64,000 nucleotides of DNA from a virus (IMGVR_UViG_3300029839_000128); one strand, 5' to 3'. Positions 10,003 to 62,592 are shown, counted from the stretch's first letter. Made by a program: numbers and translations. The notes: generated by a model from the letters alone, not told the origin.

Positions 10003-10003
10003 C

Positions 10004-26989: not shown

Positions 26990-28144
26990 TTAAAGAGAGG
27001 TGGTATTCATGGATTTGAGGCTTTTTGCAGCCGCAGCGATTGCTTTGGCAGCAGTTCTCATTTCATCAGCCGTAGTGTCTGTACCCATGGAAATACGAAT
27101 AGTAGACGCAGCCAACTCTTCGGGAATACCAGCTCCCATAAGAACATGAGAAGGGTTAGGACTTCCAGCGCTACAGGCAGATCCGGCGGAAACACAAATA
27201 TCATCCTGATCCAATCGAAGCACCATTGCCTCACTATTTACACCAGGTACGGTCAAGCTGATAATGTTTAGCGCGGTATTATTCCCACCATTGATGGAAT
27301 ACTCATCGGGTTCCATATGAATAGCAAGACTATCAAAGAAGACCTTGCGAAGCGACTGCCATTTATCTTTCCATACGTTCAAATTTTTAACAACAAGCTC
27401 AGCAGCAACTCCCAGAGCGATGATACCAGGAACATTTTCAGTACCTCCACGAATACCGCACTCCTGACCTCCGCCGTAAATAAAAGGTTTTTTAGGGATA
27501 TCACTGCGGATATATAGAATACCAGTCCCCATAGGAGCGCCAAACTTATGGCCGGAAAGGGAAAGCATATCTATATGACAAGCTTTTACATCCATAGGCA
27601 CATGACCTGCGGCCTGAATTGCATCCACATGGAAAGGAACATTATAGGTTTTACAAAGAGTTCCAATATCTTTGATGGGATTGATAGTTCCCAACTCATT
27701 ATTGACCCACATAACGGACACAGCACCAACAATGCCATGGTATTGATCCAGTTTTGCTTTCAAGTCTTCCAAGTCTACTGCGCCAGCAATGTCTACTTTT
27801 GCGAAGATTGGACGGGCATAAGCAGCAGAGATAACGCATTTTTCTACCGGTTCTAAAATGGAGTGGTGCTCTACTTTAGTGGTAATAATAATATGACGGT
27901 TAAGATTTTTGATCCAAGCATTGTTCGATTCGGTGCCTCCGCTGGTAAAATAGATCTCAGACGGATCGGCATTGATCATCCGGGCAACCTGCCGGCGTGC
28001 CTTTTCGATTGCTTGATGTGCCCGCACACCCTGAGAATGAATGCTGCTTGGATTGCCTACATGATCAGGCTGAAGCCATTGAAGCATCTGTTTAAGCACT
28101 TCGGGGTGTACGGGAGTGGTTGCTGCGTGATCAAGGTAAATCAT
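26990..28144 (-). CDS. cysteine desulfurase (class V aminotransferase, IscS/NifS-like)
   Basis: MIYLDHAATTP start. SLSGHKFGAPMGTGILYIRS PLP-lysine motif. GSACSAG C-terminal catalytic Cys loop. 384 aa. Confidence 0.85.
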   Translation of the reverse strand: MIYLDHAATTPVHPEVLKQMLQWLQPDHVGNPSSIHSQGVRAHQAIEKARRQVARMINADPSEIYFTSGGTESNNAWIKNLNRHIIITTKVEHHSILEPVEKCVISAAYARPIFAKVDIAGAVDLEDLKAKLDQYHGIVGAVSVMWVNNELGTINPIKDIGTLCKTYNVPFHVDAIQAAGHVPMDVKACHIDMLSLSGHKFGAPMGTGILYIRSDIPKKPFIYGGGQECGIRGGTENVPGIIALGVAAELVVKNLNVWKDKWQSLRKVFFDSLAIHMEPDEYSINGGNNTALNIISLTVPGVNSEAMVLRLDQDDICVSAGSACSAGSPNPSHVLMGAGIPEELAASTIRISMGTDTTADEMRTAAKAIAAAAKSLKSMNTTSL

Positions 28145-28239: not shown

Positions 28240-29775
28240 TTATGCTAAAGAGCGCATAGCATCCTCTACGGGCTGATAGCGCTCAGTATTGAGGGTTTCC
28301 AGCAGGCACTCATAAGGATCGAGCTTCCCACTCATTACCATTTTGGCAATGTTGGGAGAGAAACCGCTAACCAAAGCCACACCCAGATCGTTCTCCTTAA
28401 CAGGAATGGTGCCGGTGCGCGAATTGACATTCCAGAAGACCATCCGGGGCAACTGGTAGCCAGCATCCTGATATCGCTGAGCGATAGTGTCAAAGAGAGT
28501 GACGCTGGGGCGATTACGGGTATAGCTGTACCGAGATCTGACACCGCAAGTAGCACACCCATCGAACTCCATATCTGAGATGATGAGGATGTTCTGAGGA
28601 AGATCTTCCTGACACATATTGTTCTGGATGGCGGTATCCAGAATGAGATTGAAAACCGCCTCAATATTGGTATTGGCGACCTCATTATGGCGGCGGGCGA
28701 TACTCAACTTCTCGCGCAAGCTTTTACCCTTGCTGAGATCCACCAGCCTGGGAGTCTCGGAGAAGGTGATGTAGTTATCCTTAAACTGACCGGAGGAACG
28801 CTCAGCGAAATAAATTGCCAGAGCATTGGCAACTTCCAGAGCGGACACATCAGTGCCACCGACGCGGACGCTCATGCTTCCACTGCCGTCCGCCACAACA
28901 ATGGTATTGCCACATTCCTGAACAGTATCAGGCAAAGACTGCCACAGCGCCTCCAAAGTGGCGTCAGTACCAGACTTGCGACCATACTGATGTACGATGT
29001 CGTGAGGGAAAAGGGTTCCAGCGTTAATCTTTGCCTCGCCACGCTCGACGCTGGCAAGGAACTCACGACGACGATCCTCGTCGTGACGGAGGAACGCACT
29101 ATTGTAACGCAGATTTGCACGAGAAGGAACGCGCTGATAATCAATCTTATCCCAATCACGGGAAGACATCTGGCGCTCTACAACCTTCAGATACTCGGAC
29201 AGATTAGACAGGGTATGCTGATACTCTCGTTCGGTCATGTTCAGTGCCTTGCACAGCATGGATGCGTAACGACGTGACAGCTGAGAAGAGGATTTACGGC
29301 GAGGCATCCACTTGGCAAGCAGAGAAATACTCTTGTTCTCTTTGGCATCGGCCACATCCTGATAAAGCTGTTGAGCAACCAGAGTAAACACCTCGTCAGC
29401 AACGGCAGTATCCAACAGACACCAGAGGTCGTCCCAGCGGCCATATTCAGGCACCAGCGACACAACCGCCTGAATATATTCGGGATGCTCCTTTGCCATA
29501 GCCTCAATTACGGAGCGGAACAGACGACGCTCGCCCAGACCACCACGAATATCACGGGCAAAGAACAGCCACTTCATAGCGACAATCTTATCCTCAAAGA
29601 AAGCCGTAATGAAACGATCGGCGATATCTTGTTCAGAAGCAGAACGCAGAGAAGCGACCGCGAAGTTGAGATCCAGCAGCTTCCTTCCGGTAGTACGATA
29701 GCCCACAGCACCATTTTCGGTAATAGCGGGCGCACCATCAAGAGTAGTCTTGACAGCAGACATAAAATTGCTCAT
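28240..29775 (-). CDS. DUF2828-like protein with vWA/MIDAS motif (possibly Ro60/TROVE-like RNA-binding module)
   Basis: 511 aa. Helical N-terminal half followed by VVADGSGSM (DxSxS MIDAS). Immediately downstream of the tRNA-like cluster. Confidence 0.45.
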   Translation of the reverse strand: MSNFMSAVKTTLDGAPAITENGAVGYRTTGRKLLDLNFAVASLRSASEQDIADRFITAFFEDKIVAMKWLFFARDIRGGLGERRLFRSVIEAMAKEHPEYIQAVVSLVPEYGRWDDLWCLLDTAVADEVFTLVAQQLYQDVADAKENKSISLLAKWMPRRKSSSQLSRRYASMLCKALNMTEREYQHTLSNLSEYLKVVERQMSSRDWDKIDYQRVPSRANLRYNSAFLRHDEDRRREFLASVERGEAKINAGTLFPHDIVHQYGRKSGTDATLEALWQSLPDTVQECGNTIVVADGSGSMSVRVGGTDVSALEVANALAIYFAERSSGQFKDNYITFSETPRLVDLSKGKSLREKLSIARRHNEVANTNIEAVFNLILDTAIQNNMCQEDLPQNILIISDMEFDGCATCGVRSRYSYTRNRPSVTLFDTIAQRYQDAGYQLPRMVFWNVNSRTGTIPVKENDLGVALVSGFSPNIAKMVMSGKLDPYECLLETLNTERYQPVEDAMRSLA

Positions 29776-30372: not shown

Positions 30373-30449
30373 CGCTCCAGCCTGGGACTCGAACCCCGGC
30401 CCTCCGGCCATACTTCGGCCAGCGTGCTTTCCGCCTACACCACTGGAAC
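30373..30449 (-). tRNA. tRNA-like element t3 (77 nt), non-canonical (A33, mismatched T stem), possible pseudo-tRNA
   Basis: Acceptor GTTCCAG/CTGGAGC pairs 7 bp. T loop TTCGAGT present but T stem has a G-A mismatch. Anticodon-like loop GAAGTAT lacks U33. Confidence 0.35.
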
Positions 30450-31018: not shown

Positions 31019-31112
<94 letters not shown>

Positions 31113-35401: not shown

Positions 35402-35432
35402 AAAACCGCCCTCAAATGAGGGCGGTTTTTTT
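35402..35432. terminator. bidirectional intrinsic terminator
   Basis: AAAACCGCCCTCAAATGAGGGCGGTTTTTTT lies between convergent genes. Confidence 0.7.
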
Positions 35433-38400
35433 AACTGATTTTTTGTTGACCCCAGGTAATCTGAAACTTTCCGTTTTCATCCTCTTCACGGCTCATTAAC
35501 AAAGACATAAGATCGTAATCCACGCCAAAACGATCATAAATTTCATCCAGATCTACATCTTGTCCCTTCATAAAGAGATTGAGACGTTCTTTAGATAGAA
35601 CCATCTGCATTTGGTTGGACTCAATACTTCCGCCATAAGTGACAAAATAAATGTCTTTCCAATCCACGGAGGTAAAGCGGATAAAGCGGTGATAAAACTG
35701 GCTCATGCGAGCGTTATTGAAATGCAGTTCTGGGATAATGATCTTGTTTACAAACTCGAAGTTGACACTGGATGGGAGACTTTGCTGGGTACAGAGCAAA
35801 ATACCATTGCCACTTGCTCGCAAAGTTTTTCGCAAAGCACGGCGCTTTGTAAGAGTGGTTGTAGACCCAGTAACGACGAAAAGAGAACGGTTAGGAAAAC
35901 GAGCGCGAATTTCTTCAGCGTATGACTCTACTACATTCTTGTGGCGGACGCCAATGACAACAATCTCCTCAGAGTTTTCCTCCAACATATCCATGACTTT
36001 GGCAATCTTTACTGGAGTGTCATTAGAATGATACTCTTCTACCGTATTAGGGGCGGCAGAAATACGGAGCAATAAGGTAATCTGCTGAATTAACGCCATC
36101 ATGCTATCCTTACGACTGTTTCCAGTTGAAGCAAAATAGCGACTACGCATGGTATAGAACTCCTCAATCGCCTGATTATAAACAGCATATTCAGCAGGGG
36201 AGAATTTAACGGGAACCTGATGAATGCGGCGAATATCTTTACCGGTAATCTCCTCAAAAGTGCGGGTGATCACAGAATAAGACAGGATTTTGCTAAGTAC
36301 ATCCGCATTATAAATATCCTGGGAGCGCTTGCCTACACCAAAGACAGTGATCTTCTCCGGCAGATGAGACTGCGAAAACAAAGTATAACCAGGCTTGTAA
36401 GCCGGGATAGGACTTCCATAATAAGGGTTGTTTGTAACTTCCAGATATCGCTCGCCCTCACTATCCTTATCATAGTGATACAGAGTTTCCGCCCAAGAGA
36501 TCATATTGTAAGAGTTATTATAAAGTAACTCAAGTTGGGGTGCAGCTTCCGAAATATTGTTGCGAGTAACCGTACCGGTCATCGCCAATTTGAATTTAAC
36601 GCGACGAAAACAGTCCAAAATAGCTTTGGTGCGTTTACTGTTGGGATTTGTCATCTCATCGCTTTCATCCAAAACCAAACATACATTTTGGTTACGGGAC
36701 TTAATATGACGCTTGATGTGCTTGCGATACTTTGTGAGCATATTCATAGTGATAATTACATACTCACCATCCTGTACCTGTTCCAGATCTTTCAGCCTCG
36801 TAACCATCCGGTAGGGCAGGGAGTAGTTACTAAGCACTTCATCCCAGTTGTTATTGATAGAAATAGCAGTAGACACCACCCAAGTGTTTCTGGCGTGCTG
36901 GTACCGCATACGGTACATACCAACGGCGATGCCGGCCAAAGTTTTGCCGCTGCCTTGTTCCCATTGGAGGAGATGATACTGCTTCTGAAGAATAAGATTG
37001 ATGTCGGATTTTTGCCTGTCGTTAAGATGAATTTCTTCCTCGTTCTCAAGATCGTACACCATGAACGCATCCAAAAACTGTGCAATTTTAGGGTCGGGAG
37101 ACATCTCTTCAAAAGGCATAGTCTCGATATGGTACTGCCGCTGTTTACGACGAATGACGCGAGCAAATTCACCAAGATTCTCAGGAATTTCACCCTCAGT
37201 GACAAGGCGGTGAATAGGGCCAGGATTCTCCAGCTTTTGAAGGACGGGTAACACCTTCCGGCTATACGCCTTAAAGACGATTTCGTGATCTCGCTTTACC
37301 ATTTTTACCACATCTGCGGTAGGTTTGGTATGCTGAGAGCGAACTGTGCGACGAAGATAAGCCAAGACCTTAGCTTCCGTAATGCGGATCTTCGCCCATT
37401 CTTTGTACTTCATATTCTCCGGCATGACCTGGTGCTCAAATCTGTAAAGATATTCCTGACACTTGGCATACTTATCCCGGATTTTCGGATTGCTCTTAAT
37501 CTGATAGAGCATCTTTTGGACTTGATAGTGAAAATCGCTGTCGTTCCCAGAATGAAGCGCAAGTTTTGCACGACTACGATCCCGTTGCATACGCTCTTTT
37601 GCGGGAGCCACTACGTTCTGACGAACAGTATTCAGGAGACTACCTGTGTTTTCCAGAGCAACCATAGAGAAGCAGTTGGCTTCCGTTAGATCGTAACGAT
37701 TTCCCTGATCTTCTGGATTTAGCTTTTTCTGCCAAAACATCAAGCTGGTAGGAAAATTTGAAACGCCCAGATATTTGAAGGCACCGGCAGGAATAGATAC
37801 CTGTCCCAAAAAAGAAAAATCTTTTTCCAGTTCAGAGATTTTTGCGTGATCCAAAAACTCATCCGCAAGGAATGAAGAAGGAACAACGATTGCCATAATC
37901 CCCAAGGGTTTAAGCAACTGCGCAGCTTTGACACAATAATACATCTGGGAAAGATATTCACCCTGGTCGGTGTCCCACTTCAGATTGAAAGGGGGATTGC
38001 CAACCACATAATCAAAGCGCATATTGGGATTATAATAGCGAATGTCACGATGTTCCAGATTGGCGGCTGGATAGAGATAGTGGGCAACTTTATGTGATTT
38101 GATGTCCAGTTCACATCCATAAAAGTTGGCCTCTATGGGCATGAAATTACAAAAGTTAGCAATGCCGCTTGTCAGATCGGCCACGGTCTCGTCCATACCA
38201 GGCTGCAACGCCTCCATGACAAACCGGCAAAGCGCAGGGGGTGTGAAGAACTGCCCATTTTCAATCTCTTTCTTGGCTTCTGAAAATTCGTGGTAGTTGT
38301 CAAAGTCAGAGCGGTTAAGTCCGTGTAAACCACCATCGCCAGTATAGGCATTGAAAATATCCTCGCAAGAGATCCCGGACTGAGCAGCCAAATCCTGATC

Positions 38401-38481
38401 CACCAAATAAAGAATCTTTTCGTTCAGCTCTTTGCGGGCTTCCTGGGGGATAGGCTGATTATGATATTGATACTTCATCAT
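35431..38481 (-). CDS. fused gamma-class N6-adenine DNA methyltransferase and SNF2/DEAD-box (SF2) helicase (1016 aa), DarB-like
   Basis: N-terminus GQFFTPP (motif X), DLTSGIANF (motif I), DYVVGNPPFN (motif IV NPPF). C-terminal helicase motifs QWEQGSGKTLAGI (I), LVLDESDEM (II), AMTGTV (III) plus a helicase-C region. Preceded by the phage promoter motif 38502-38531. Confidence 0.75.
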   Translation of the reverse strand: MMKYQYHNQPIPQEARKELNEKILYLVDQDLAAQSGISCEDIFNAYTGDGGLHGLNRSDFDNYHEFSEAKKEIENGQFFTPPALCRFVMEALQPGMDETVADLTSGIANFCNFMPIEANFYGCELDIKSHKVAHYLYPAANLEHRDIRYYNPNMRFDYVVGNPPFNLKWDTDQGEYLSQMYYCVKAAQLLKPLGIMAIVVPSSFLADEFLDHAKISELEKDFSFLGQVSIPAGAFKYLGVSNFPTSLMFWQKKLNPEDQGNRYDLTEANCFSMVALENTGSLLNTVRQNVVAPAKERMQRDRSRAKLALHSGNDSDFHYQVQKMLYQIKSNPKIRDKYAKCQEYLYRFEHQVMPENMKYKEWAKIRITEAKVLAYLRRTVRSQHTKPTADVVKMVKRDHEIVFKAYSRKVLPVLQKLENPGPIHRLVTEGEIPENLGEFARVIRRKQRQYHIETMPFEEMSPDPKIAQFLDAFMVYDLENEEEIHLNDRQKSDINLILQKQYHLLQWEQGSGKTLAGIAVGMYRMRYQHARNTWVVSTAISINNNWDEVLSNYSLPYRMVTRLKDLEQVQDGEYVIITMNMLTKYRKHIKRHIKSRNQNVCLVLDESDEMTNPNSKRTKAILDCFRRVKFKLAMTGTVTRNNISEAAPQLELLYNNSYNMISWAETLYHYDKDSEGERYLEVTNNPYYGSPIPAYKPGYTLFSQSHLPEKITVFGVGKRSQDIYNADVLSKILSYSVITRTFEEITGKDIRRIHQVPVKFSPAEYAVYNQAIEEFYTMRSRYFASTGNSRKDSMMALIQQITLLLRISAAPNTVEEYHSNDTPVKIAKVMDMLEENSEEIVVIGVRHKNVVESYAEEIRARFPNRSLFVVTGSTTTLTKRRALRKTLRASGNGILLCTQQSLPSSVNFEFVNKIIIPELHFNNARMSQFYHRFIRFTSVDWKDIYFVTYGGSIESNQMQMVLSKERLNLFMKGQDVDLDEIYDRFGVDYDLMSLLMSREEDENGKFQITWGQQKIS

Positions 38482-53163: not shown

Positions 53164-53195
53164 CCGCTGGAAGATGATCCAGCGGGCATTTTTTT
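53164..53195 (+). terminator. intrinsic terminator (hairpin + TTTTTTT)
   Basis: AGCCCGCTGGAAGATGATCCAGCGGGCATTTTTTT. Confidence 0.6.
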
Positions 53196-53700
53196 ATAGC
53201 ATAGCCTCCATGATCTTGACTTTTTCCAGAGCTTCGGCCAGCAGTTCCCGATCCCGTGGCAAGCATTTTTCCATCTCCGGGTCTGCTTGGTCTTCCTCAA
53301 TCTCTTCCTCCCAATATTTCACCGTATTCCGCGCATCTTCAAGCTGCTTTAGGAAGCGATCTGGGCATCTTTCTCGGAGCCGCCGCAAACTTCTCAACTC
53401 TCTTTCCGTTCTTTCAACCTCTCGGCGCTTAGCAAGGTCTGCCCGCTCCTGCTCTGTCGATCCAAAAGAAATTGTCCCGCAGCCGTTCAACTTTGAATAG
53501 TTCAGGGTAACTATGCGGCCTCTCCATTCTCTGGTGTAGTAATGGTGTCGTGTCCGGTCTCCCTGGAACTGGTCAACCATGACCGTGTGCCGTTCCATGT
53601 ATCGCGTGCATATAGCCGTCTGTTTGCGTGTCAGCCAGTGTGTCTCCCGTCCAAACCGCTCAAAAAGAGACGGAAGAAAAGTATCGTCAAACCAGCTCAT
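53194..53700 (-). CDS. hypothetical protein (about 168 aa, Arg/Glu-rich C-terminus)
   Basis: Start MSWFDDTF at 53700 (track ORF is longer). Promoter motif 53732-53761. Confidence 0.45.
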   Translation of the reverse strand: MSWFDDTFLPSLFERFGRETHWLTRKQTAICTRYMERHTVMVDQFQGDRTRHHYYTREWRGRIVTLNYSKLNGCGTISFGSTEQERADLAKRREVERTERELRSLRRLRERCPDRFLKQLEDARNTVKYWEEEIEEDQADPEMEKCLPRDRELLAEALEKVKIMEAML

Positions 53701-53805
53701 TGTTACGCCTCCATTCGTTCTATCTATTATTATTACAAACACAAAAGAGGATTTGCTAACCTGTTTTCAAATAAAAAAACGGCAGGCCGTAGCCTGCCGC
53801 CCTGG

Positions 53806-54063
53806 TCAACTCAATTCAAATTCCAGCGCTTCAATAATCTCGGCCCGCATAGTTGACGGGCGATCCGATATAGCACCCAGCGCCGGCGCTTTCAGACACT
53901 CAAAAGCCATATAGGTAACACGTCCGACCGTCGCCGTCTTGACCTGACAGCTTTCACAGTGGAGACATTCACCATTGCAAGCCTTTACTGCTCGGAGCTG
54001 GCGCTTTAAGTCGGCAATCTCTTTTTTGGTCTTGACTATTCCGTTCCAATTATACGCACTCAT
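53806..54063 (-). CDS. small Cys-rich protein (85 aa)
   Basis: ORF track. Promoter motif 54096-54127. Terminator 53781-53798. Confidence 0.45.
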   Translation of the reverse strand: MSAYNWNGIVKTKKEIADLKRQLRAVKACNGECLHCESCQVKTATVGRVTYMAFECLKAPALGAISDRPSTMRAEIIEALEFELS

Positions 54064-54141
54064 TTTACACCCTCCATTTTTCGTTGTTCTATTTATATTA
54101 CAGAACGAAAGAGGATTTTGCTAACCAGTTCCATAAAAAAA

Positions 54142-54162
54142 GCGGCGGGAAACCCCGCCGCC
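54142..54162. terminator. terminator hairpin GCGGCGGGAAACCCCGCCGC (copy 1)
   Basis: Identical 20-nt hairpin recurs at 54644-54664. Confidence 0.6.
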
Positions 54163-54165
54163 GTC

Positions 54166-54576
54166 TTAGAATGGACATACGACATCACGCGGTCTATACC
54201 CATAGACATCCTTGTGATAATCGGAATAGTAGGAATAGAGATCATCCCATTCGTCTCTGTCTATTCCGCCTTGTTCCAGCCGCTTCTTAATATCCAACAA
54301 CTTCTTTTTGTCATCTTCAGCCTCTTCGAGCATCTTTTTATATCCATTCAGCTGCTCCGCGATCTTCTCCAGGGTGTCTCCACCCAGCCACGGAAGGGAA
54401 GGAGAGAACACCAGATAATACTCCACCTGATCAAAAGACTTAGGCTCCACGACGCCGCCGCAGGGCTTAATCGTCACCTCATCACCATTGCACGCCATTG
54501 TTACGGATATTTCCTGAAACTGCGCAGCGATGATCCGCCTCCGTAACTCCTGAGCTGTTCTTTCTATTGTCATCAT
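54166..54576 (-). CDS. hypothetical protein (136 aa)
   Basis: ORF track. Promoter motif 54597-54628. Confidence 0.45.
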   Translation of the reverse strand: MMTIERTAQELRRRIIAAQFQEISVTMACNGDEVTIKPCGGVVEPKSFDQVEYYLVFSPSLPWLGGDTLEKIAEQLNGYKKMLEEAEDDKKKLLDIKKRLEQGGIDRDEWDDLYSYYSDYHKDVYGYRPRDVVCPF

Positions 54577-54643
54577 CTTTTATCGCCTCCTATTATTATT
54601 ACAGACTCCGATCCGAATTTGCTAACCATCTAAATAAAAAAAA

Positions 54644-54664
54644 GCGGCGGGAAACCCCGCCGCC
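54644..54664. terminator. terminator hairpin GCGGCGGGAAACCCCGCCGC (copy 2)
   Basis: Exact duplicate of the hairpin at 54142-54162. Confidence 0.6.
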
Positions 54665-54667
54665 AGT

Positions 54668-54976
54668 TTATAATGAATGTGCCTCTTCATACTGGGAGAC
54701 CGTTTCCTGCAGGCGCTCGCGCTCCCTGTCCAGCTCTGCCAGTCTCTGCTTTGCGTCGTCGTACCGCTCCCGTGCGGCCAGCATATCATCGGCACGCCGC
54801 AGCCTGTCATAATGTCCGCGTTTTGCGGTCAGCTTCTCCACGCCGATCAAGTCCACGATCTTGCAAAAGTCGTCCTTGTCCAAGTCCAGAAGCAGATACA
54901 AAGAGTTGAGCGCCCACAGCTGCCCCTCGTTGATCTGCACGGTCTTCAACCGTTCATTAGCTTCACATAGCATCAT
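54668..54976 (-). CDS. coiled-coil protein (102 aa)
   Basis: ORF track. Promoter motif 55015-55046. Confidence 0.45.
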   Translation of the reverse strand: MMLCEANERLKTVQINEGQLWALNSLYLLLDLDKDDFCKIVDLIGVEKLTAKRGHYDRLRRADDMLAARERYDDAKQRLAELDRERERLQETVSQYEEAHSL

Positions 54977-55088
54977 AATTCACAGCCTCCATTCTGTGTT
55001 CTTGTTCCTATTATCATTACAGACGCTGAATCTGATTTGCTAACCAGAAACAAAAAAAAAGAACGGTGGGAGATCCCCGCCGCTTCTT

Positions 55089-55310
55089 TTACAGCCAGCC
55101 GTCCATCATCTGCTTCAAAATGTGCGCTGCATCCTCTTCGCCGCTGCACGTCCCCAGCAGCCGGAGCGCCCGATCCATCCGCCGCCGTAGCTCCGCCACA
55201 ATTAGAGCTTGCGTCTGCTTGCGGTCTTCCTGGTTGATCCGGTTCTGCTCAAACCCGTAGGCGCGAAAGAGCTGTTCCATGGTTCGCGCTTCGTAAATCA
55301 GTTTATCCAT
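55089..55310 (-). CDS. small protein (73 aa)
   Basis: ORF track. Promoter motif 55352-55381. Confidence 0.4.
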   Translation of the reverse strand: MDKLIYEARTMEQLFRAYGFEQNRINQEDRKQTQALIVAELRRRMDRALRLLGTCSGEEDAAHILKQMMDGWL

Positions 55311-55455
55311 CTCCGTCCTCCTGTTCCGTTGTGCGTTACTCTTCTGTTATTATTACAGACGCAGCCCACGATCTGCTAACCGATACGGAAAATTTTCTTG
55401 TGCGGATGGAAAAGAAAACGGGCGGGAGCCTCAGCCCTCGCCCGTCGTCCTTCGT

Positions 55456-55737
55456 TTACCACCTGACAATAATCATCTTATCGTTGCCGCTATGCTCAAT
55501 AGCGAATCCGTTGCTCTCCAGGATGTCACAAACGGCGCTGCACAGCTTCTCGGACTCAATGCGCATGGAATAGGAAGAGCGCCCCATGTTTGCCTCCTGC
55601 ATGATGCTCTGCTCCACGCTGGAGACCTTCTTTTCTGCGGCCTCAATCAATGCGGCCTGCCGCATGGCTTCACAGTTCTTGACCGCCGCTTTTGCGGCCT
55701 CGGCGTTGAAATTCATAATCATCATATGTCCCTCCAT
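55456..55737 (-). CDS. small protein (93 aa)
   Basis: ORF track. Promoter motif 55774-55802. Confidence 0.4.
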   Translation of the reverse strand: MEGHMMIMNFNAEAAKAAVKNCEAMRQAALIEAAEKKVSSVEQSIMQEANMGRSSYSMRIESEKLCSAVCDILESNGFAIEHSGNDKMIIVRW

Positions 55738-55820
55738 GATTTATCTGTTCGTGTTCTGGATTTCTCTATTCTTATTACAGAAACTTTCCCGGCTCTGCTA
55801 ACCATTCCAGCAAAAAAAAC

Positions 55821-55845
55821 AGGCCGGAGTTTTGCCCCGGCCTGC
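55821..55845. terminator. intrinsic terminator hairpin (AGGCCGGAGTTTTGCCCCGGCCT)
   Basis: A-run before, T-rich after. Confidence 0.5.
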
Positions 55846-55853
55846 CGTTCCAT

Positions 55854-56003
55854 TCAGTCTTCCATGTTGTCAGCCAGTCGATTGATCCAGCGATCCAGCG
55901 GCGGGATCAGCGGGAAAACATAGTCCGCAATCAGACCGCCCACGGCCAGGATCAGGAGAAACGCGGCCAGGATGCCCAGCCAGATAATAGCGTCTGCGAT
56001 CAT
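55854..56003 (-). CDS. small membrane protein (49 aa), GC-rich codon usage
   Basis: ATG 56003 with GGGAGG RBS (track ORF is longer). Confidence 0.4.
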   Translation of the reverse strand: MIADAIIWLGILAAFLLILAVGGLIADYVFPLIPPLDRWINRLADNMED

Positions 56004-56016
56004 GTTCCCGCCTCCC

Positions 56017-56376
56017 TCAGATGAAGTACATCTCGCCATTGATTTCCAGGGCAACGGCTTCCTGCTCCATCTCGTTCTTCAGTTCTTCGCACAGGGAGAC
56101 GACTTCCTCAATGTGCTGCTGCAGGTCGGCGTCGCTGGCATAGGCGAAAACTACGGTGGTGTTCTCAGCTACCAGACCAGCCACAGGGGAAAGCCAGTAG
56201 CCCAGCGCCGGGGTGCTGGTGGCACCGCCGAAATACTCAGAGAGGGCAGAGGCAACGCGCTTGACCTGCGCGGTGTTGTCGGTGGCCGTGTCCACGCCGT
56301 TGGTGGCGGGCACATAGACGGTGATCTTGCTGGAGAGCTTCAGGCAGTTCTTGAGCTTGGCGTTGACGATGTTCAT
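56017..56376 (-). CDS. hypothetical protein (119 aa), GC-rich codon usage
   Basis: ORF track. Hybrid promoter/leader motif 56446-56475. Confidence 0.45.
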   Translation of the reverse strand: MNIVNAKLKNCLKLSSKITVYVPATNGVDTATDNTAQVKRVASALSEYFGGATSTPALGYWLSPVAGLVAENTTVVFAYASDADLQQHIEEVVSLCEELKNEMEQEAVALEINGEMYFI

Positions 56377-56445
56377 AATTCAAACCCCTTTTCTATTCAT
56401 GGCCGGCGGCCTGGTGTTGACCGCCGGCTCGGTGTTCCTGTTCTT

Positions 56446-56475
56446 ATTTCAGAATGGTTTTATGAGTTGCTAACC
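56446..56475 (-). promoter_or_regulatory. hybrid motif containing both the TTATGAGTTGCTAACC leader-type and the ATTTCAGAA promoter-type elements
   Basis: Plus strand atttcagaatggttttatgagttgctaacc. Confidence 0.45.
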
Positions 56476-56491
56476 AAAGGAAAAGATTTTT

Positions 56492-57307
56492 TCAGCAGGC
56501 CACGGACTGGAGAGCCGCCCGCATTTTCACGATCCGCTTGTGTACAGCCACATTGGAGATCTTGACCTCGGCGGCAATCTCCCGCTCGGTCATCCCAGCG
56601 GCCACGCGCTCCAGAATGGCCTGATCCATCGCGTCCCGCCCGCTCTTGAAGCGTTCCAGGTCAGCCCGGATGATGGCGCTGGTCTCGGTGTTCGTGGTCA
56701 GGTCGGCAACTCTGGTCTCGGTGTAGCTCTCGGCCTCGCCGTTGTCGTTGGTAATCTCGAAGTCGGTCGCGGCGGCGTGCTTGCTGTCCTGGTAGAAGAT
56801 GGCCGCGATGCTGGCGCGGGCGGCGTTGTAAACGATGGAGATCAAGGTGATAGGGCGCTTGCCCTGAGCGGCGCGGCGCTCATTGGTGGCGGTCAGCTTG
56901 TCAGGATCAAGGGCAGCGGCCACGCGCAGCCAGGTTTCAGAAACAAACTCGTCGAGATCATGCGGCCCGTACAGGCCAAAGGCGGGAACCTCGGAGAACT
57001 GCAGGTAATGGTCTTCGGTGCTGTAGCCGATGGCGTTGCGGGCGGCGCGGTGAATGCAACGCTTCATCATGTTGACCTGCTCGGCCTCGGTCATGTTGCC
57101 CCAGCTGGCGACGCGCTCCGCAGCGTTGCGGGCGGCGTGCTGTCCCTCGGCCTCCGCCCACGCTATGCGCAGGCACTCGCCCATGATGACCTCGGAGACC
57201 TTGCAGCCGATTTCCTCGGCGGCGTTGCGGCGGATGTCCCAGGCGCGCCCCATGATGGCGGTGAGGTCGTAGGTCTTGCGGGTGGTGGTGTTGGTGGTGG
57301 TAGTCAT
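56492..57307 (-). CDS. sigma-70-family-like transcription factor (region-4 HTH), GC-rich
   Basis: C-terminus GMTEREIAAEVKISNVAVHKRIVKMRAAL resembles sigma70 region 4.2 / ECF-type HTH. 271 aa. GC about 65 percent with strong third-position GC bias, unlike the rest of the window. Two tandem leader motifs upstream. Confidence 0.5.
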   Translation of the reverse strand: MTTTTNTTTRKTYDLTAIMGRAWDIRRNAAEEIGCKVSEVIMGECLRIAWAEAEGQHAARNAAERVASWGNMTEAEQVNMMKRCIHRAARNAIGYSTEDHYLQFSEVPAFGLYGPHDLDEFVSETWLRVAAALDPDKLTATNERRAAQGKRPITLISIVYNAARASIAAIFYQDSKHAAATDFEITNDNGEAESYTETRVADLTTNTETSAIIRADLERFKSGRDAMDQAILERVAAGMTEREIAAEVKISNVAVHKRIVKMRAALQSVAC

Positions 57308-57323
57308 AGTATTGAACCCCTTT

Positions 57324-57465
57324 CAATCATTTTATGAGTTGCTATCGGAAGCGATCCGGGAATCCGATCCATCCGCCACGGCGGAGGCCGTTTCCCGCTC
57401 CCTTTATCTATACCTATTTTACCACCGTCAAGGGTATTTGTCAATCATTTTATGAGTTGCTAACC
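57324..57465 (-). promoter_or_regulatory. two tandem copies of the conserved leader motif (57324-57345 and 57443-57465) upstream of the sigma-like gene
   Basis: caatcattttatgagttgctat and caatcattttatgagttgctaac. Confidence 0.45.
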
Positions 57466-57479
57466 TGACAGAGAGGGGT

Positions 57480-58300
57480 GAAAAGTGACGAAATACAAGG
57501 CACAAAATTGTGCAGTATAACGAACGGCAACCGCCTGCCCCCAGCCCACCAGCCCAGCGGGATCATGCCAGCCCAGCGCCCAGCCTGCCCACCTGAGACG
57601 GCAGCGCCACGCCGCAGGCCAGCAGGAGCAAGGCCAGACGGCAGCGCGGAGCAGCCCGCGCCCGTACAGGCAGAGAGGCAGGCCAGCGGGAGAGCAGTAA
57701 CGACGGAGCAGGAGCGGAGCAGGCAAGCCGCCGCCAGAGCCGCACCAGCCCCACCCAGCCACACCACCAGCCGCCAGCCCCGACCAGCAGACCAACCACG
57801 CCCAGCCGGAGACCGTGCAGCCGATCCAATCCAACCCAGCCCCAGCGCCCGGAGCGATCCCGTGAGAGAGTCCAGAGGAGGGGAGGAGGGGAGGGAGGGA
57901 GAGAGGAGCGGCGCGGCCATCGGTGCAAATTTCCCGCCCAGGTCATAATATGCCGAACACGCCGCCCAACCGCCCAGGGCAGACCGTCCCGGAGCGATCC
58001 AGCCCCAGCGCCACCAGAGAGCAACCGGAACCGCCCGCCGTGCTGCGCTGCAGTTCTGCTTTTGGAGAGAATGCAGAACCAGCGACCCCGCAACCCCCGA
58101 AGAGCGACGGAAGACAGCCCCACCCGGCAGCAGTAGCCCCACCAGACCGGGGGAGCCTCGACATTTCCGCGACGCCCGCTCATCTACGATAAGCGTTCAG
58201 TACCTTCACCTCCACACCATTTCCCCAAAAACCAACTCAACCCCCAACCGCCATCGTATGTTATACCCTTACAACTCCTCGTCGGAGCCTCACTCAAGCT
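57480..58300. repeat. GC-rich (above 65 percent), strongly T-depleted low-complexity region with CCAGCC/CAGC-type short repeats and a purine tract
   Basis: Direct reading finds very few T on the plus strand. Track ORFs here encode Pro/Ala/Gln/Arg-rich low-complexity peptides on both strands. No RBS or promoter found. Confidence 0.5.
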
Positions 58301-58450
58301 AACCCACGTTTGTCAAGGTATTTTTGCTGTTTTCATGCACTTTTGAAACTGCTGTCCTTTCAGGGCTTTCCGTCATTTTGACGAAACCGTAACCTACGAA
58401 GATCTCCGTTGGTTCAATCCGAAAAGCAACAAATTAAATTAAAGATACTA

Positions 58451-58479
58451 TTGACTTTGACGGTACTTTTGTGTATAAT
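58451..58479 (+). promoter_or_regulatory. sigma70 consensus promoter TTGACT-N17-TATAAT
   Basis: ttgactttgacggtacttttgtgtataat. Followed by leader hairpin GTGGAAATCCAC and leader motif 58512-58528. Confidence 0.65.
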
Positions 58480-58511
58480 AGTGATGTGGAAATCCACGAC
58501 TTTAATCGTAG

Positions 58512-58528
58512 ATAGCAACTCATAAAAT
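58512..58528 (+). promoter_or_regulatory. conserved leader motif ATAGCAACTCATAAAAT (plus-strand copy) immediately upstream of RBS GAGGTGA
   Basis: Same motif as the minus-strand copies. Shows the motif follows gene orientation. Confidence 0.5.
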
Positions 58529-58540
58529 GAGGTGATTTGA

Positions 58541-59338
58541 ATGGAAATTCAGATGTCCTTGTTCGATACGGTACCTCAGATCACTGAGACGCCGGCAAGA
58601 GAACCTGGAAAAGTGATCCTTTTCCCTGGCATTCAGGAGACTCAGCCGCCCAAGCCTACTAACTACCGTAAGGGTGGAGAGCAAACCGTATTCCCCATCA
58701 AGAAGCAGGAAGAACTTGAGGCTATGGCGAACTGGCTGCACAAGAATGCAGATCGAAAGTATCTCCTCGGATTTATCCTTGGTATCAATCTGGGTCTGAG
58801 AGCAAACGAGCTGCTTACCCTGAAGCCGGCAGATCTCTTCCATGAGGATCATACTGTAAGGTACTCCCTGGATTTCTCTGATACTTCTGATCAGTATTCC
58901 CTCTACCAGAAGAAGGTTAATAAGCGCAGGCGGTTCTTCCTGAACGAAGCCTGTGTGTCTGCCCTTACATGGTACTATCACGGAGACTTCTCTAAGGCTT
59001 ATAAACATGAATACATTTTTTACTCTCGTGAGGGTGGTCACATCGAGGTAGACACCTTCCGTAAGAAGCTGAAGGATGCAGCTACGGCCTGCGGCATCCG
59101 GCAGAACATCGGAACCCATACACTCCGCAAGACCTTTGGTTATATGCACTACATGAGAAATAAAGATATTGTGTTTCTCCAGAGGCTCTTTGGACATTCA
59201 AGTGCTCTGATCACCATGCGCTATATTGGTATCGCTGAGGAAGAGGAGAAGAGAGCGTATCACTCGGTATCTATCAATTTGCTTGACTCTCTTCCTGTTG
59301 AGGCTGACAGCGACATTGAAAGCACCACCGGCCAGTAG
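58541..59338 (+). CDS. tyrosine recombinase/integrase-family protein (catalytic domain only, 265 aa)
   Basis: LRANELLTLK (box I Arg), HTLRKTF (HxxR), GHSSALITMRYI (box II with Tyr nucleophile). Confidence 0.7.
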   Translation: MEIQMSLFDTVPQITETPAREPGKVILFPGIQETQPPKPTNYRKGGEQTVFPIKKQEELEAMANWLHKNADRKYLLGFILGINLGLRANELLTLKPADLFHEDHTVRYSLDFSDTSDQYSLYQKKVNKRRRFFLNEACVSALTWYYHGDFSKAYKHEYIFYSREGGHIEVDTFRKKLKDAATACGIRQNIGTHTLRKTFGYMHYMRNKDIVFLQRLFGHSSALITMRYIGIAEEEEKRAYHSVSINLLDSLPVEADSDIESTTGQ

Positions 59339-59616
59339 GGGAGGAGGCTTCTTCCTGCAATGACCTTGCTACGGTCTGCCGAGCGAAGCGAGGCAGGAAG
59401 AAGGCAACCCCCTCAGAATTAAAAATTGCGTTTTTCATAACTTTTTAGCCTATTTTGAATGAAGTGAAAAAGAACCTTTTTCCTTTAAGGGCTTGATTTC
59501 ACAAACCCCGATGAATCAAGGGGTTGCGAGGGGTCAAAATCCGAATTTATAACCTCGAAAGTTATAAGCCCATTTTTCGATATCAGAACTTTTGAACATT
59601 TTTGGCTTTTTAGGAG

Positions 59617-60039
59617 GTGTCTATTTTGAGTCGTATAAGCAAGGATGACTACTACCTGAACATTGCTGCGGCGGTGTCAAAGAGATCTACCTGTATCCGC
59701 CGCCAGTACGGAGCGATCATCGTTAAGAATGACCGCATTATTTCCACCGGGTATAATGGCTCTGCTCGCGGAGAGGTAAACTGCTGTGACTCCGGGCGCT
59801 GCTGGAGAGAGGAGAACGGTATTCCTCATGGTGAACGGTATGAGGCTTGTGTAGCCGTACACGCTGAGGACAACGCAATTTCTCAAGCCGGCAGAGAGAC
59901 GATCGGCGCTACGCTTTACTTGGCAGGATTTGAAAACGGAAAGTCTATTCAGGCAGAGCCGTGTATGATGTGCGCCAGAAAGATCAAGAACGCAGGGATT
60001 GTTAAGGTCATTGCTTCGCAACCGGAGGGAGAGGTTTAA
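59617..60039 (+). CDS. deoxycytidylate (dCMP) deaminase
   Basis: HAEDNAI (HAE zinc ligand motif) and PCMMCARKI (PCxxC). Confidence 0.85.
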   Translation: MSILSRISKDDYYLNIAAAVSKRSTCIRRQYGAIIVKNDRIISTGYNGSARGEVNCCDSGRCWREENGIPHGERYEACVAVHAEDNAISQAGRETIGATLYLAGFENGKSIQAEPCMMCARKIKNAGIVKVIASQPEGEV

Positions 60040-60042
60040 TAA

Positions 60043-60627
60043 GTGGGAAGAAATTTATACATCGCCGATACCCATTTCGGCCACAAGAATATTATCCGAT
60101 TTGACAGCCGGCCATTTGCTACGGTTGATGAAATGGAGGAAGAGATGGTCAAACGGTGGAACGTGGCCGTCGAACCATCTGACACCGTATATATCTTAGG
60201 AGATTTCTGCTGGGGAAAGGAAGATGAATGGCTGCGCATCCTGAATATGCTGAAAGGTAGTAAAGTGCTGATTTTAGGCAATCACGATTTGAAGAATATG
60301 AGCAGCCAGCTTCGCAATAAGTTCCAAGATGTCAAAGATAAGAAGGAGATCACGGACGGCGGGCGTCATGTGATCATGTCTCATTATCCAGAGCTGCTTT
60401 ACAAGGGTTCTTATAATCCCTACTGCTATATGCTTTGCGGTCATGTCCATGTTACCCGCGAGAATGATTTCTTGGAGCGCTGGACAGAGGAGCTGCGGCA
60501 GAGTCGGCGAGAACCCAGTCATAGCTTCGGCAACATTATCAATGTAGGCTGCATGATGCCATGGATGGACTTTACTCCCCGCACGCTGGAAGATATTATT
60601 TCCCGAAGGTGGCTGAAATGTATTTAA
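60043..60627 (+). CDS. calcineurin-like metallophosphoesterase
   Basis: DTHFGH, GDFCWG and GNHD motifs. Confidence 0.75.
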   Translation: MGRNLYIADTHFGHKNIIRFDSRPFATVDEMEEEMVKRWNVAVEPSDTVYILGDFCWGKEDEWLRILNMLKGSKVLILGNHDLKNMSSQLRNKFQDVKDKKEITDGGRHVIMSHYPELLYKGSYNPYCYMLCGHVHVTRENDFLERWTEELRQSRREPSHSFGNIINVGCMMPWMDFTPRTLEDIISRRWLKCI

Positions 60628-60891: not shown

Positions 60892-62592
60892 ATGGGGCTG
60901 TTTGTAGATAACTTTGCCGGTGGTGGCGGTGCGAGTACCGGAATTGAGCTGGCGATTGGACGCAATGTTGATATTGCCATCAACCACGACCCGGATGCTA
61001 TAGCAATGCACCGAGCAAACCATCCCAACACCAAGCACTACTGTGAAGATGTGTGGGAAGTTGATCCGGTGGAGGCGTGTGACGGTAGGCCGGTAACGCT
61101 TGCGTGGTTCAGCCCGGATTGCAAACATTTCTCCCGTGCTAAGGGCGGTAAGCCCGCCGATAAAAATATTCGTGGTTTGGCATGGGTAGCTGTCAAGTGG
61201 GCATATCTGGTACGCCCCAGCGTGATCATGTTGGAGAATGTACCTGAGATCCAGACTTGGGGGCCGCTTGGGAAAGACAACCGCCCTATCAAAGAGCGGG
61301 CTGGAGAGACATTCGACGGCTTTATTAAGGCGCTGTCTACTGGTATTTCGACAGATCATCCGGCATTCCCGGAGATGTGTGAAGCGCTGAGTATTTCGTG
61401 GGAGTCAGAAATGGCGATTGCGCTGGTAAAGGGGTTGGGGTACGATATCCAGTTTCGTACACTGCGCTCCTGTGATTATGGAGCACCCACAACACGGCAG
61501 CGTTTTTATATGATCGCTCGTTGTGATGGAAGGAAGATTGTGTGGCCGAAACCCACTCATGGACAGAAAAACAGCGCTGATGTGAAGTCGGGCAAAAAGA
61601 AGCCGTATCACACTGCTGCGGAGTGTATTGATTGGAGTATTCCGGCGCAGAGCATTTTTGAGCGAGATCGACCGCTTGCAGAAAATACGCTGCGCAGAAT
61701 CGCAAGAGGTATTCGGCGCTTCGTGATCGATAACCCGGAGCCTTTCATTGTGACGGTCAATCATGGCGGAGATAATTTTAGAGGTCAAAGTATCAATGAG
61801 CCGCTACAGACCGTGACTGCAAAGCACGGATACGGTATTGTGACTCCTACCATTATGTGCAACAACGAAAACAACGTGGGCGCAAGGGTAGACTCTCCGC
61901 TGCCTACCGTAACTACTGGAAACCGGAATTTCCTGGTGGCACCTACATTGATCCAGTATCACAGCGAAACTTCAAAAGAAGAGGTGCGTGGGCAAGAGGT
62001 GGATCAGCCGATTATGACTATTGACACCGCTCCTCGGTATGCACTTTCTTGTGCGCACATTATGAAAAATTATGGCGGCGGATATACGGGAGCCGGTAGT
62101 AAGGCGGACGCCCCATTGGATACAGTGACTGCAACCGATCACAATAGTTTGGTAACGGCTCACATTATGACTATGCGGAACCATATGGATGGTCAGCCTG
62201 TAGATGAACCTCTTGGAACCATTACGGCGGGCACAACCCATCATCTGGAAGTGCAGGCGTTCCTTCTGAAATACTACGGAAATGGGACGGCCAACTCTGT
62301 AAGTGAGCCGCTGGACACGGTAACGGCGAGGGATCGTTTTGCTTTGGTAACAATCCATGGTGAGGAGTACATTATTACCGACATTCGTATGCGTATGCTG
62401 CAGCCTCGCGAGTTGTTTAATGCCCAGGGATTCCCGGAAGATTACATCATCGACCATGACGCGGATGGCAAGGTATACCCCAAGGTAAAGCAGGTGGCGA
62501 GATGTGGAAACGCGGTGACGCCGCCGGTACCTGCGGCACTGGTAAGAGCCAATTTGCCGGAGTGCTGTGTGGCCGAGGTCAATGTAGCATGA
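60892..62592 (+). CDS. DNA (cytosine-5)-methyltransferase
   Basis: Motif I FAGGGGAS, motif IV SPDCKHFS, motif VI IMLENVPE. 566 aa with a large variable/TRD region. Confidence 0.85.
   Translation: MGLFVDNFAGGGGASTGIELAIGRNVDIAINHDPDAIAMHRANHPNTKHYCEDVWEVDPVEACDGRPVTLAWFSPDCKHFSRAKGGKPADKNIRGLAWVAVKWAYLVRPSVIMLENVPEIQTWGPLGKDNRPIKERAGETFDGFIKALSTGISTDHPAFPEMCEALSISWESEMAIALVKGLGYDIQFRTLRSCDYGAPTTRQRFYMIARCDGRKIVWPKPTHGQKNSADVKSGKKKPYHTAAECIDWSIPAQSIFERDRPLAENTLRRIARGIRRFVIDNPEPFIVTVNHGGDNFRGQSINEPLQTVTAKHGYGIVTPTIMCNNENNVGARVDSPLPTVTTGNRNFLVAPTLIQYHSETSKEEVRGQEVDQPIMTIDTAPRYALSCAHIMKNYGGGYTGAGSKADAPLDTVTATDHNSLVTAHIMTMRNHMDGQPVDEPLGTITAGTTHHLEVQAFLLKYYGNGTANSVSEPLDTVTARDRFALVTIHGEEYIITDIRMRMLQPRELFNAQGFPEDYIIDHDADGKVYPKVKQVARCGNAVTPPVPAALVRANLPECCVAEVNVA

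Follow-up and report, generated by a model that had tools for sequence, protein, structure and literature searches.

We analysed a 64,000-nt stretch of viral DNA, IMGVR_UViG_3300029839_000128 (the window, whose numbering is used throughout), and looked at the spacer from which its early genes diverge. There, minus-strand open reading frames (ORFs) stop at 57307 and plus-strand ORFs begin at 58541. On one side lies the gene of a 271-aa protein that we call sigma-like for its resemblance to extracytoplasmic function (ECF) sigma factors (56492..57307, minus strand) and on the other, divergent from it, the gene of a 265-aa Xer-like tyrosine recombinase (58541..59338, plus strand), which matches Pfam Phage_integrase at 6.5e-22 and stays below the cut-offs of the XerA, XerC and XerD models. 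The space between the divergent early promoters is filled by an element of about 0.7 kb that is conserved, single-copy, noncoding and strand-specific. Its parts are described below on the minus (sigma-sense) strand. A first-pass annotation, made from the sequence alone, had proposed an origin of replication or a recombination or packaging-related site at this strand switch. A functional noncoding site is supported in general, and the flip in polarity lies at the tract where it had been placed.

The GC content is 61.3% at 55850-58300 against 45.9% at 1-55000, with 60.6% in the genes at 55854-57307 and 68.3% at 57480-58180. In this last interval T makes up 6.8% of the plus strand, and at 57600-57799 it makes up 1%. 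A maximal-segment scan delimited a single-base-depleted tract at 57519..58157 (minus strand), the only such region across the 64 kb. Its GC content is about 70%, and A accounts for 5.6% of its minus strand (T for 5.6% of its plus strand). Over 500-nt segments T averages 26.7% (standard deviation 3.1), and its minimum of 4.6% falls in the segment that is also the GC peak of the whole 64 kb. Besides the tract and the adjoining sigma-like gene, T or A drops below 15% nowhere else in the 64 kb. The five longest T-free runs of the plus strand (117, 70, 61, 48 and 42 nt) are all inside the tract, with a maximum of 38 nt elsewhere. GCTGG (CCAGC on the plus strand) is present in 19 copies in the 639 nt of the tract, an AT-rich stretch (58200-58540, 38-41% GC) lies beside it, and the cumulative GC skew of the window, a check that the first-pass annotation had proposed, has its minimum at about 58-59 kb. 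Since the tract recurs in about 70 independent assemblies (viral, metagenome and genome), it is no assembly artefact. These results indicate that the T-poor, GC-rich anomaly that had been noticed at 57480-58300 is real and stronger than was claimed, and that its CCAGC micro-repeats are there.

We looked at the same place in relatives. The recombinase gene, a spacer of 1.1-1.45 kb and the sigma-like gene were found in this divergent order in 18/18 IMG/VR relatives with upstream DNA and in 4/4 bacterial genome contigs. Among metagenome loci found with an independent DNA pattern and having enough flank, 23/24 carried the sigma-like gene and 34/36 the upstream recombinase; the locus without the sigma-like gene (L095), which is also one of the two without a recombinase match, matches the pattern by chance. 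At the locus L068 (OHPV01000225.1), where the structured module described below is present with enough flank, no upstream recombinase match was obtained, and this locus may have a different left-hand neighbour. In every relative the spacer contains such a tract, 330-640 nt long, in which A makes up 4-9% of the sigma-sense strand, and the layout is constant across 19 clusters below 93% identity. The sequence of the tract drifts. Distant relatives have only short blastn matches in common, and the tract of the window aligns with that of L002, whose sigma-like protein is 90% identical, over 300 nt only and at 78% identity. Neither G-richness nor GC skew is a selected property, because the G/C ratio reverses between lineages, with minus-strand C equal to or above G in L017/L018 and L021. 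GCTGG is 2.3-fold enriched overall and in 7/10 lineages, and it is absent from L017 and L021; GATC is merely about 2-fold enriched, CAGG being the commoner context for A. One rule is universal and always has the same orientation: the minus strand is kept free of A and the plus strand free of T.

The tract does not behave as a coding sequence. Long ORFs are present in all six of its frames, and these are a by-product, since every stop codon needs both T and A. The period-3 signal-to-noise ratio did not exceed 4 in the tracts (1-4), whereas the neighbouring genes reached 9-28. Among relatives about 95% identical, indels of 1, 2, 7, 10, 21 and 58 nt were concentrated in the tract, and the frames that start from the sole conserved ATG ranged from 5 to 169 codons, erratically even inside a single 95%-identical cluster.

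The 5' end of the element is a structured module of about 170 nt (58050..58218, minus strand) made of three hairpins and conserved single-stranded boxes. An invariant GGTACTGA (58197-58204, minus strand) stands directly before hairpin P1, CGCTTATC gta GATGAGCG (58177..58195, minus strand), for which at least 7 different fully compensated stems were found across lineages, with 7/8 pairs changed on both sides and all wobble pairs being T·G on the minus strand. Next is a conserved unpaired box, AAATGTNNAGGCTCCCCC (58149..58166, minus strand), whose columns are invariant in a 16-sequence alignment; a pattern with this box retrieved 23 viral DNA stretches, with a single match in each. Hairpin P3 (58097..58110, minus strand) has a CCG / CGG stem and an 8-nt loop and alternates between C-G and U-G, its two alternating pairs being UG in 39 and CG in 7 sequences, and UG in 28 and CG in 11. 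The terminal hairpin consists of GGTTCTGC, a 13-nt loop ATTCTCTCCAAAA (family form NNNCTCTCCAAAA) and GCAGAACT (58052..58080, minus strand), and 99.5% of its cells are paired. Two adjacent G·U pairs at its base are kept in 49 and 46 of 52 distinct sequences, and one pair is CG in 44 and UG in 7. The pattern of this hairpin retrieved 43 true metagenome loci.

A covariance model of the module (R1), built from 16 sequences, found exactly one copy per locus in 72 loci, with scores of 97-160 bits and 147 bits for the copy of the window. The covariation score was 0.154 against 0.092 (standard deviation 0.006) for shuffled alignments; 0/500 shuffles reached it, and all slid controls were beaten. The alignment used here was fitted to the R1 model and has P1 partly out of register, so that the hand analysis is the better evidence for P1. 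In helices 2 and 3, both of which are well aligned, we counted 458 Watson-Crick pairs, 177 minus-strand G·U pairs and 1 A·C pair, an A·C pair being the appearance of a G·U pair from the opposite strand. Compensated helices with wobble pairs of one strand only, as seen in the module, are the signature expected of an RNA, less likely of a single-stranded DNA, with the polarity of the sigma-like gene. Rfam 15 gave no match to the spacer at E <= 1 for the window or at E <= 5 for five other lineages.

Past the module by about 100-150 nt, most lineages have an island that contains A and T, with the consensus GGGGTTCGG-TATAT(A/T)ATGAC (57941..57960, minus strand). Its ATG was considered as a gene start and rejected on the length of its frames, only 5 to 169 codons. 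Further on is a polypyrimidine (CU) tract (57872..57911, minus strand), which is the plus-strand purine tract GGGAGGAGGGGAGGGAGGGAGAGAGGAG that the first reading had picked out. In 19 clusters below 93% identity, 34-40 of its 40 nucleotides are pyrimidines, and it always starts 167-200 nt past the start of the terminal hairpin. No conserved pairing partner was found for it. A G-quadruplex or H-DNA in the purine tract was rejected as a conserved feature, being present in the lineage of the window only. Between the polypyrimidine tract and an end box extends an A-free hypervariable tail. The end box, which closes the tail (consensus TTCGTCATATTGCACAA; 57503..57525, minus strand), was read from the sequences of several lineages, and sigma-54 and extended -10 readings of it were dropped as a poor fit by eye.

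The spacer is bordered by outward promoters of the sigma-70 type. The leftward early operon has TTGACA-17-TAAAAT with TG before the second hexamer (57416..57444, minus strand; 11/12), and an equivalent was present in 6/9 lineages scanned, while the rightward operon has TTGACT-17-TATAAT (58451..58479, plus strand; 11/12), with equivalents in 9/9. By the -35 of the leftward promoter is a lineage-specific box, GGTTAGCAACTCATAAAATGA (57445..57465, minus strand), with copies in the 5' leaders at 57327-57346 (minus strand) and 58511-58530 (plus strand). Each of the two divergent early promoters has a box of 16-20 nt next to it and another copy in its 5' leader, and a 20-nt perfect inverted repeat flanks the spacer. 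Equivalents were located in L003, L004, L018 and L021; the box reads TAGCAACTCATAAAAT in the window, TAGCAACAAAGAAAAT in cluster B, TAGCACGCCAAAAAT in L018 and TAGCGCGTCATTAG in L021. This co-variation by lineage suggests that the box is an operator for a lineage-specific binding protein or regulator.

To follow the loss and gain of A, we compared 25 close variants of the tail, with the polarity of each mutation assigned by the majority allele, which is crude. G>A was observed at 10/113 G sites against C>T at 32/99 C sites (p = 2e-5), and C>A at 0/99 against G>T at 7/113 (p = 0.015), while A>G and T>C were equal. This indicates that the exclusion of A from the minus strand is actively maintained, new As being selectively missing among close variants. 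Frequent exchange of C and T with rare G>A fits G:Y pairing in a minus-sense RNA, and a similar pattern would result from strand-specific deamination of cytosines in an exposed minus strand. For the minus-sense RNA the folding energy is -0.48 kcal/mol per nt, no better than for its shuffles, and the stability of this RNA is therefore independent of its sequence. A specially evolved fold of the tail was rejected, as neither strand beats its shuffles (z = +0.9 and +0.7).

The reading that we favour, while giving it slightly less than an even chance, is that the element is a leftward-transcribed noncoding RNA or leader; its transcription, the direction of transcription through the tail and, above all, its function are what we infer. 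Transcription would run leftwards in the sense of the sigma-like gene and would yield a separate noncoding RNA or else a long leader into the early operon. A would be retained solely in a few conserved unpaired boxes of this RNA, and the tail would be held to a composition, not to a sequence, forming a very stable body of G-C and G·U pairs. Since G pairs with C or U, drift from C to U and slippage would be harmless, and the tail would fold like any shuffle. In an A-free tail no AUG, stop codon, canonical Shine-Dalgarno sequence or -10 hexamer would be possible. The likely working surfaces would be C-rich unpaired motifs, namely the CUCUCC loop, the GGCUCCCCC box and the CU tract. These might pair with purine-rich ribosome-binding sites or load Rho and in this way control early expression, which is the least supported step.

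Several observations weigh against a leftward RNA. No promoter into the element was found in the 9 lineages searched by scan and regular expressions, which gave only the outward sigma-70-type promoters at the edges of the spacer, and no consistent terminator comes after the tail. The asymmetry of the wobble pairs would be the same for single-stranded DNA of the same polarity, through its G·T pairs. As A-U pairs would do as well in helices, this reading gives no reason for A being nearly absent and not just rare. The CU tract is without a conserved partner and the proposed targets are guesses. Finally, the flip of the G/C ratio between lineages points to selection on A or T alone.

The alternative that survives best, which we nevertheless consider unlikely, is an R-loop-type (RNA-primed) origin, modelled on ColE1 RNA II, T4 oriF/oriG and the mitochondrial conserved sequence blocks (CSB). 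Here a transcript of the tract would stay hybridised to its template in negatively supercoiled DNA between the strong divergent promoters and would open the duplex or prime replication, and exclusion of T from the plus strand would give a U-free RNA without weak rU:dA pairs. The site is where the main strand switch and the minimum of the cumulative GC skew are found, although this minimum falls where gene orientation flips and is not independent evidence. The phage has its own replisome and an Erf/exonuclease pair, the polypurine tract is conserved, the AT-rich stretch at 58200-58540 adjoins, and the layout, with three hairpins at the 5' end and then a tail of several hundred nucleotides, is reminiscent of RNA II. 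Energies were computed with provisional nearest-neighbour RNA:DNA and DNA:DNA parameters (after Sugimoto 1995 and SantaLucia 1998). With these, no other part of the 64 kb has a hybrid-minus-duplex energy as low as that of the tract, in either sense (z about -5.5 and -4.8). The plus-sense U-free RNA is favourable in 10/10 lineages (-0.15 to -0.21 kcal/mol per nt), and the minus-sense hybrid ranges from -0.22 to +0.01 kcal/mol per nt and is favourable in 8/10, the minus-sense RNA being weakly hybrid-prone in L021 (-0.08) and not in L017 (+0.01). By composition alone, a U-free RNA gains hybrid energy and an A-free RNA loses it. The order of dinucleotides shows no optimisation for the plus-sense hybrid (z of at least 0). 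GC skew is conserved in neither sense. No inward promoter was found in 9 lineages, and no cluster of DnaA boxes and no shared iterons were seen: the spacer has one DnaA box with 1 mismatch, the total of the window is near chance, and no k-mer repeats are shared across lineages besides G+C-rich slippage motifs. Neither RNase H nor Pol I was present among the proteins scanned, which represent a part of the ORFs. An R-loop is the neatest physical reason for the exclusion of T, yet it needs the sense opposite to that of the hairpins, and the sole structural evidence favours the minus strand.

Quite improbable is a purely DNA-level spacer or insulator guarding the two early promoters. With T kept to one strand, -10 and -35 hexamers would be impossible, as would A/T-containing palindromes (and with them such sites of restriction or methylation) and TpA or ApT steps, and the high GC would repel AT-seeking silencing proteins and spurious initiation. 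These properties can be read off the sequence, whose plus strand has 5.6% T and T-free runs of up to 117 nt; GC peaks at the early promoters and decays along the operon, and no promoter-like site was found within the spacer in any lineage scanned. However, base exclusion on either strand, or in patches, would suffice for such a role, yet the polarity is the same in every lineage and over the whole tract. The fixed orientation speaks against an explanation by duplex DNA alone, for which either strand would do. The strand-specific hairpins and the fixed polypyrimidine tract would also be unexplained, and GC-only palindromes are not avoided.

A recombination site or hotspot is very improbable. 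It could be a target of the Xer-like recombinase, used for dimer resolution or as a folded single-stranded site (as in integron attC and CTX phage), or an oriented Chi-like G-rich array, whose GC-biased repair would account for a gradient in the GC content of third codon positions (GC3) that is described below. The recombinase gene is always adjacent, the structure of one strand is kept while the sequence varies, as in attC, and the phage encodes Erf and an exonuclease. The stems of the hairpins, however, are of 4-8 bp, far below those of attC or dif-type sites, and no pair of 11-13-bp inverted binding sites was found. For an array one can cite the 2.3-fold enrichment of GCTGG, two exact copies of GCTGGTGG in the window and the one-sidedness of the GC3 gradient. 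By the orientation rule of E. coli Chi, stimulation would be on the recombinase side and not on the gradient side, which we counted against a hotspot, and a Chi-like GCTGG array was rejected, the motif being enriched in 7/10 lineages and absent from two (L017 and L021). An attP-type site, one form of the recombination site that had been suggested at first, is unlikely, as the sequence is hypervariable and the locus is contiguous in bacterial genome contigs: no split site with a conserved core was seen in the 4 contigs, whose status as integrated prophages is unchecked.

The genes at 55854-57307 are the first genes of the leftward immediate-early operon. The sigma-like gene (64% GC, GC3 0.85) is followed by a second early gene of 119 aa, phrog_3543, of unknown function (56017..56376, minus strand; GC3 0.80), and by a small early ORF with a hydrophobic product (55854..56003, minus strand; GC3 0.72). 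Along the operon GC3 takes the values 0.85, 0.80, 0.72, 0.72, 0.73, 0.71, 0.56, 0.51 and 0.53, while A at third positions climbs from 0.04 to 0.29, and both gradients are smooth over the first 3.5 kb (53194-57307, minus strand). The rightward operon is without such a gradient, its genes being steady at about 0.55. The gradient might stem from adaptation to the codon usage of the host, from biased repair, or from the force that also shapes the tract. The sigma-like gene was found in 21/21 IMG/VR relatives, with 58-64% GC and GC3 of 0.68-0.86 in loci whose GC is about 0.46-0.55, and the proteins are 55-99% identical to the query. High GC3 is thus an old, family-wide and graded trait of the immediate-early genes, and it equals or exceeds the GC of the host. 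The first-pass annotation had taken it for a block setting these genes apart from all their neighbours: the high GC3 was confirmed and its confinement was not, as it falls gradually further leftwards.

A recent acquisition of this GC-rich island from a high-GC donor, as had been proposed, is highly improbable. The local GC of 61-68% against a background of 46% would suit it, but the feature is common to relatives down to 55% protein identity, GC3 drops without a step, the GC is host-like or above, and the genes bear the family's own promoter cassette. Homologues of the sigma-like protein were found in this phage family only, the 120 best hits all being at least 59% identical. A horizontal island would be atypical for its lineage and absent from relatives, and this composition was found in all of them. 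For annotation, it follows that GC-rich early genes within a lower-GC phage are not necessarily imports.

The promoter-like cassette is GGTTAGCA-N14-TCTGTAAT at 56445..56475 (minus strand; repeat family D1), with further copies at 54096, 54597, 55015, 55351 and 55773. In the form CGGTTAGCA-N14-TCTGTAAT(T/A)AT it precedes each small early gene (54096-56475, minus strand) at intervals of about 350-650 nt, and each of these genes is also followed by an intrinsic terminator of its own. Distant relatives (cluster B; L004, 6800-12150) have an identical cassette. The early remark that the GC-rich genes carry the phage's own promoter motif is thus borne out. The cassette may be a target of the sigma-like protein or a host-type promoter.

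Concerning the protein itself, sigma-like is a working label only, which is weakly but consistently supported. Its Pfam matches are Sigma70_r4_2 (15.0 bits, cut-off 25.7), Sigma70_ECF (16.4, cut-off 21.1) and GerE, also below the cut-off. The match to the PHROG sigma factor family is at 2.2e-5, TIGR02937 covers residues 116-268 with 21.4 against a cut-off of 42.9, and one relative is annotated as a sigma24 family protein by one source. The AlphaFold model has a pLDDT of 75.8, and in a Foldseek search of the PDB its top matches were nearly all ECF or other sigma factors, with E of 0.09-1 and TM of about 0.2-0.3. The sigma-like factor of the first reading accordingly stands on matches that agree with one another, none of the curated ones reaching its cut-off. 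Like phage sigma factors of the SPO1 gp28 and phiEco32 gp36 type, with their ECF-like architecture, it is a small early protein with weak sigma region 2/4 signals, and here too a promoter-like cassette is repeated before downstream genes. Unlike those factors, it stays under the curated cut-offs, its N-terminal part matches Phage_Gp111 only, and its binding to RNA polymerase is putative.

A gene for a low-complexity disordered protein (Pro/Ala/Gln/Arg-rich from the plus strand or Gly/Trp/Leu/Arg-rich from the minus strand), the Pro/Ala/Gln-rich form of which had been allowed for at first, is the least probable of all and can be set aside: six largely open frames and the conserved ATG of the central island would be in its favour, but the tracts have no period-3 signal, indels of 1, 2, 7 and 10 nt separate close relatives, no frame is conserved among those of 5-169 codons from that ATG, and the sequence has neither a Pfam match nor an evident ribosome-binding site. 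A diversity-generating retroelement is similar in being adenine-specific and hypervariable, and 5-6% A is near what a variable region would keep. It differs in that the tract is noncoding, is 3-6 times as long as a typical variable region and varies by indels; in the 64-kb window we found no template repeat and no ORF of at least 200 aa with a YxDD reverse-transcriptase motif.

The window comes from a large phage, and related contigs measure 119-139 kb. Relatives of the sigma-like gene are present in genome contigs of Dysosmobacter segnis, Hominicoprocola fusiformis and other Oscillospiraceae, and the hosts are Oscillospiraceae. The genome of D. segnis BX15 has 55.5% GC (PMC8140505). It appears to carry a relative at 268-277 kb of a 388-kb contig (L047, NZ_JACOQI010000002.1), and in this contig, as in the large bacterial contig L050, the recombinase gene, spacer and sigma-like gene are uninterrupted. 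When the island was compared with known sequences, as the first-pass annotation had advised, GenBank phage DNA gave no match to 55000-59500 and GenBank phage proteins gave none to the sigma-like ORF. The recoded-stop phage group phAss-1 (PMC10607447) was also considered and rejected; it is a different family and, if in the GenBank phage collection, has no match to the locus.

The replication genes of the window encode a DnaE-type polymerase, a primase-helicase, and Erf with an exonuclease. With its counterparts in large Bacillus siphophages and one Clostridioides phage, the polymerase (Pol III alpha subunit) shares only 33-39% identity. A set for the supply of deoxynucleotides (8080-11996 and 59617-60627) comprises NrdD, ThyX, a dNMP kinase, an NT5C-type 5' nucleotidase, a dCMP deaminase and a metallophosphatase, and it fits a phage more A+T-rich than its host. 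Ordinary thymine is expected because the thymidylate synthase is ThyX, which yields ordinary dTMP; thymine replacement was thus rejected as the cause of T avoidance. Three proteins are related to DNA methyltransferases (35431-38481, minus strand; 4838-5455, minus strand; 60892-62592, plus strand). They include a 1016-aa helicase-methyltransferase-like fusion, and a 566-aa C5-cytosine methylase is encoded early in the rightward operon.

Genes of an RNA-repair style lie at 2166-2999, 23421-25144, 25441-26940 and 28240-29775 (all minus strand). They include a Thg1-like tRNA-His guanylyltransferase, a polynucleotide kinase-like protein, a nucleotidyltransferase and an RNA ligase, together with a 511-aa DUF2828+DUF7788+VWA protein of Ro60-like architecture, classed as 'RNA-binding' in PHROGs. 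This set suggests that the phage counters RNA-cleaving host defences. Genes for tRNA-Thr and tRNA-Ser are found at 30373-30449 and 31020-31112. A NifS/DndA-like cysteine desulfurase (26990-28144, minus strand) and a PAPS-reductase-like protein (21336-22178, minus strand), the latter without a Pfam match, could act in sulfur modification of DNA or tRNA.

It is possible, though on balance doubtful, that the element represents a new kind of phage control element, in which a structured RNA module is joined to a tail that is A-free as RNA and T-free as DNA and is defined by base exclusion on one strand and not by its sequence. We know of no described element with this combination of features, and a search of the literature on base-free tracts in phages returned nothing. 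If this were true, the physical chemistry of the tail would carry the function, be it a replication start or an early-transcription switch, in a large family of gut Oscillospiraceae phages. Such a tail would have no weak rU:dA or A-dependent contacts and no start, stop, Shine-Dalgarno or -10 signals, and it would have promiscuous G:Y pairing and maximal hybrid stability. If it is RNA, the module would be a structured phage motif outside Rfam that is seen in dozens of independent examples, covaries clearly and occupies the master control point of a widespread, uncultured family of gut phages of 120-140 kb. Strand-specific exclusion of a single base over 0.3-0.6 kb may also reveal a constraint on composition only, such as hybrid stability, nuclease resistance or enforced untranslatability. 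In any case the element is a sharp marker of this phage family, a relative of which the cultured D. segnis BX15 appears to carry.

Compared with known systems, the element shares with ColE1 RNA II, T4 oriF/oriG and the mitochondrial light-strand promoter (LSP)/CSB region a noncoding stretch of about 0.6-0.7 kb where replication could start, and a 5' domain of three hairpins, after which comes a long G+C-rich part, the most hybrid-prone DNA of its region. It differs in that no primer promoter or antisense RNA I was found here, RNase H and Pol I were not seen, G-richness is unconserved and the minus-sense hybrid propensity fails in two lineages. To our knowledge, near-total exclusion of one base is no feature of R-loop-primed origins. 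Processive antitermination RNAs (HK022 put, EAR) resemble it in that a structured RNA heads an early region, here one in which each small gene is followed by a terminator. Unlike them, the module is upstream and not downstream of the promoter-like site, and it has no sequence or Rfam similarity to them. The C-rich regulatory RNAs of Firmicutes (RsaE/RoxS type), a possible likeness, belong to the same host phylum and have unpaired C-rich motifs, as are here the CUCUCC loop, the GGCUCCCCC box and the CU tract, with possible pairing to ribosome-binding sites; the element is about 10 times longer, without a terminator hairpin and without an Rfam match. Finally, rRNA expansion segments and other 'cryptically simple' G+C-rich RNA inserts likewise combine a structured core with a part that evolves by slippage and indels and is held to a composition, with scarce A and abundant G:Y pairing. 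Here this combination is found between the genes of a phage and not in the ribosome, and the exclusion of A is far stronger.

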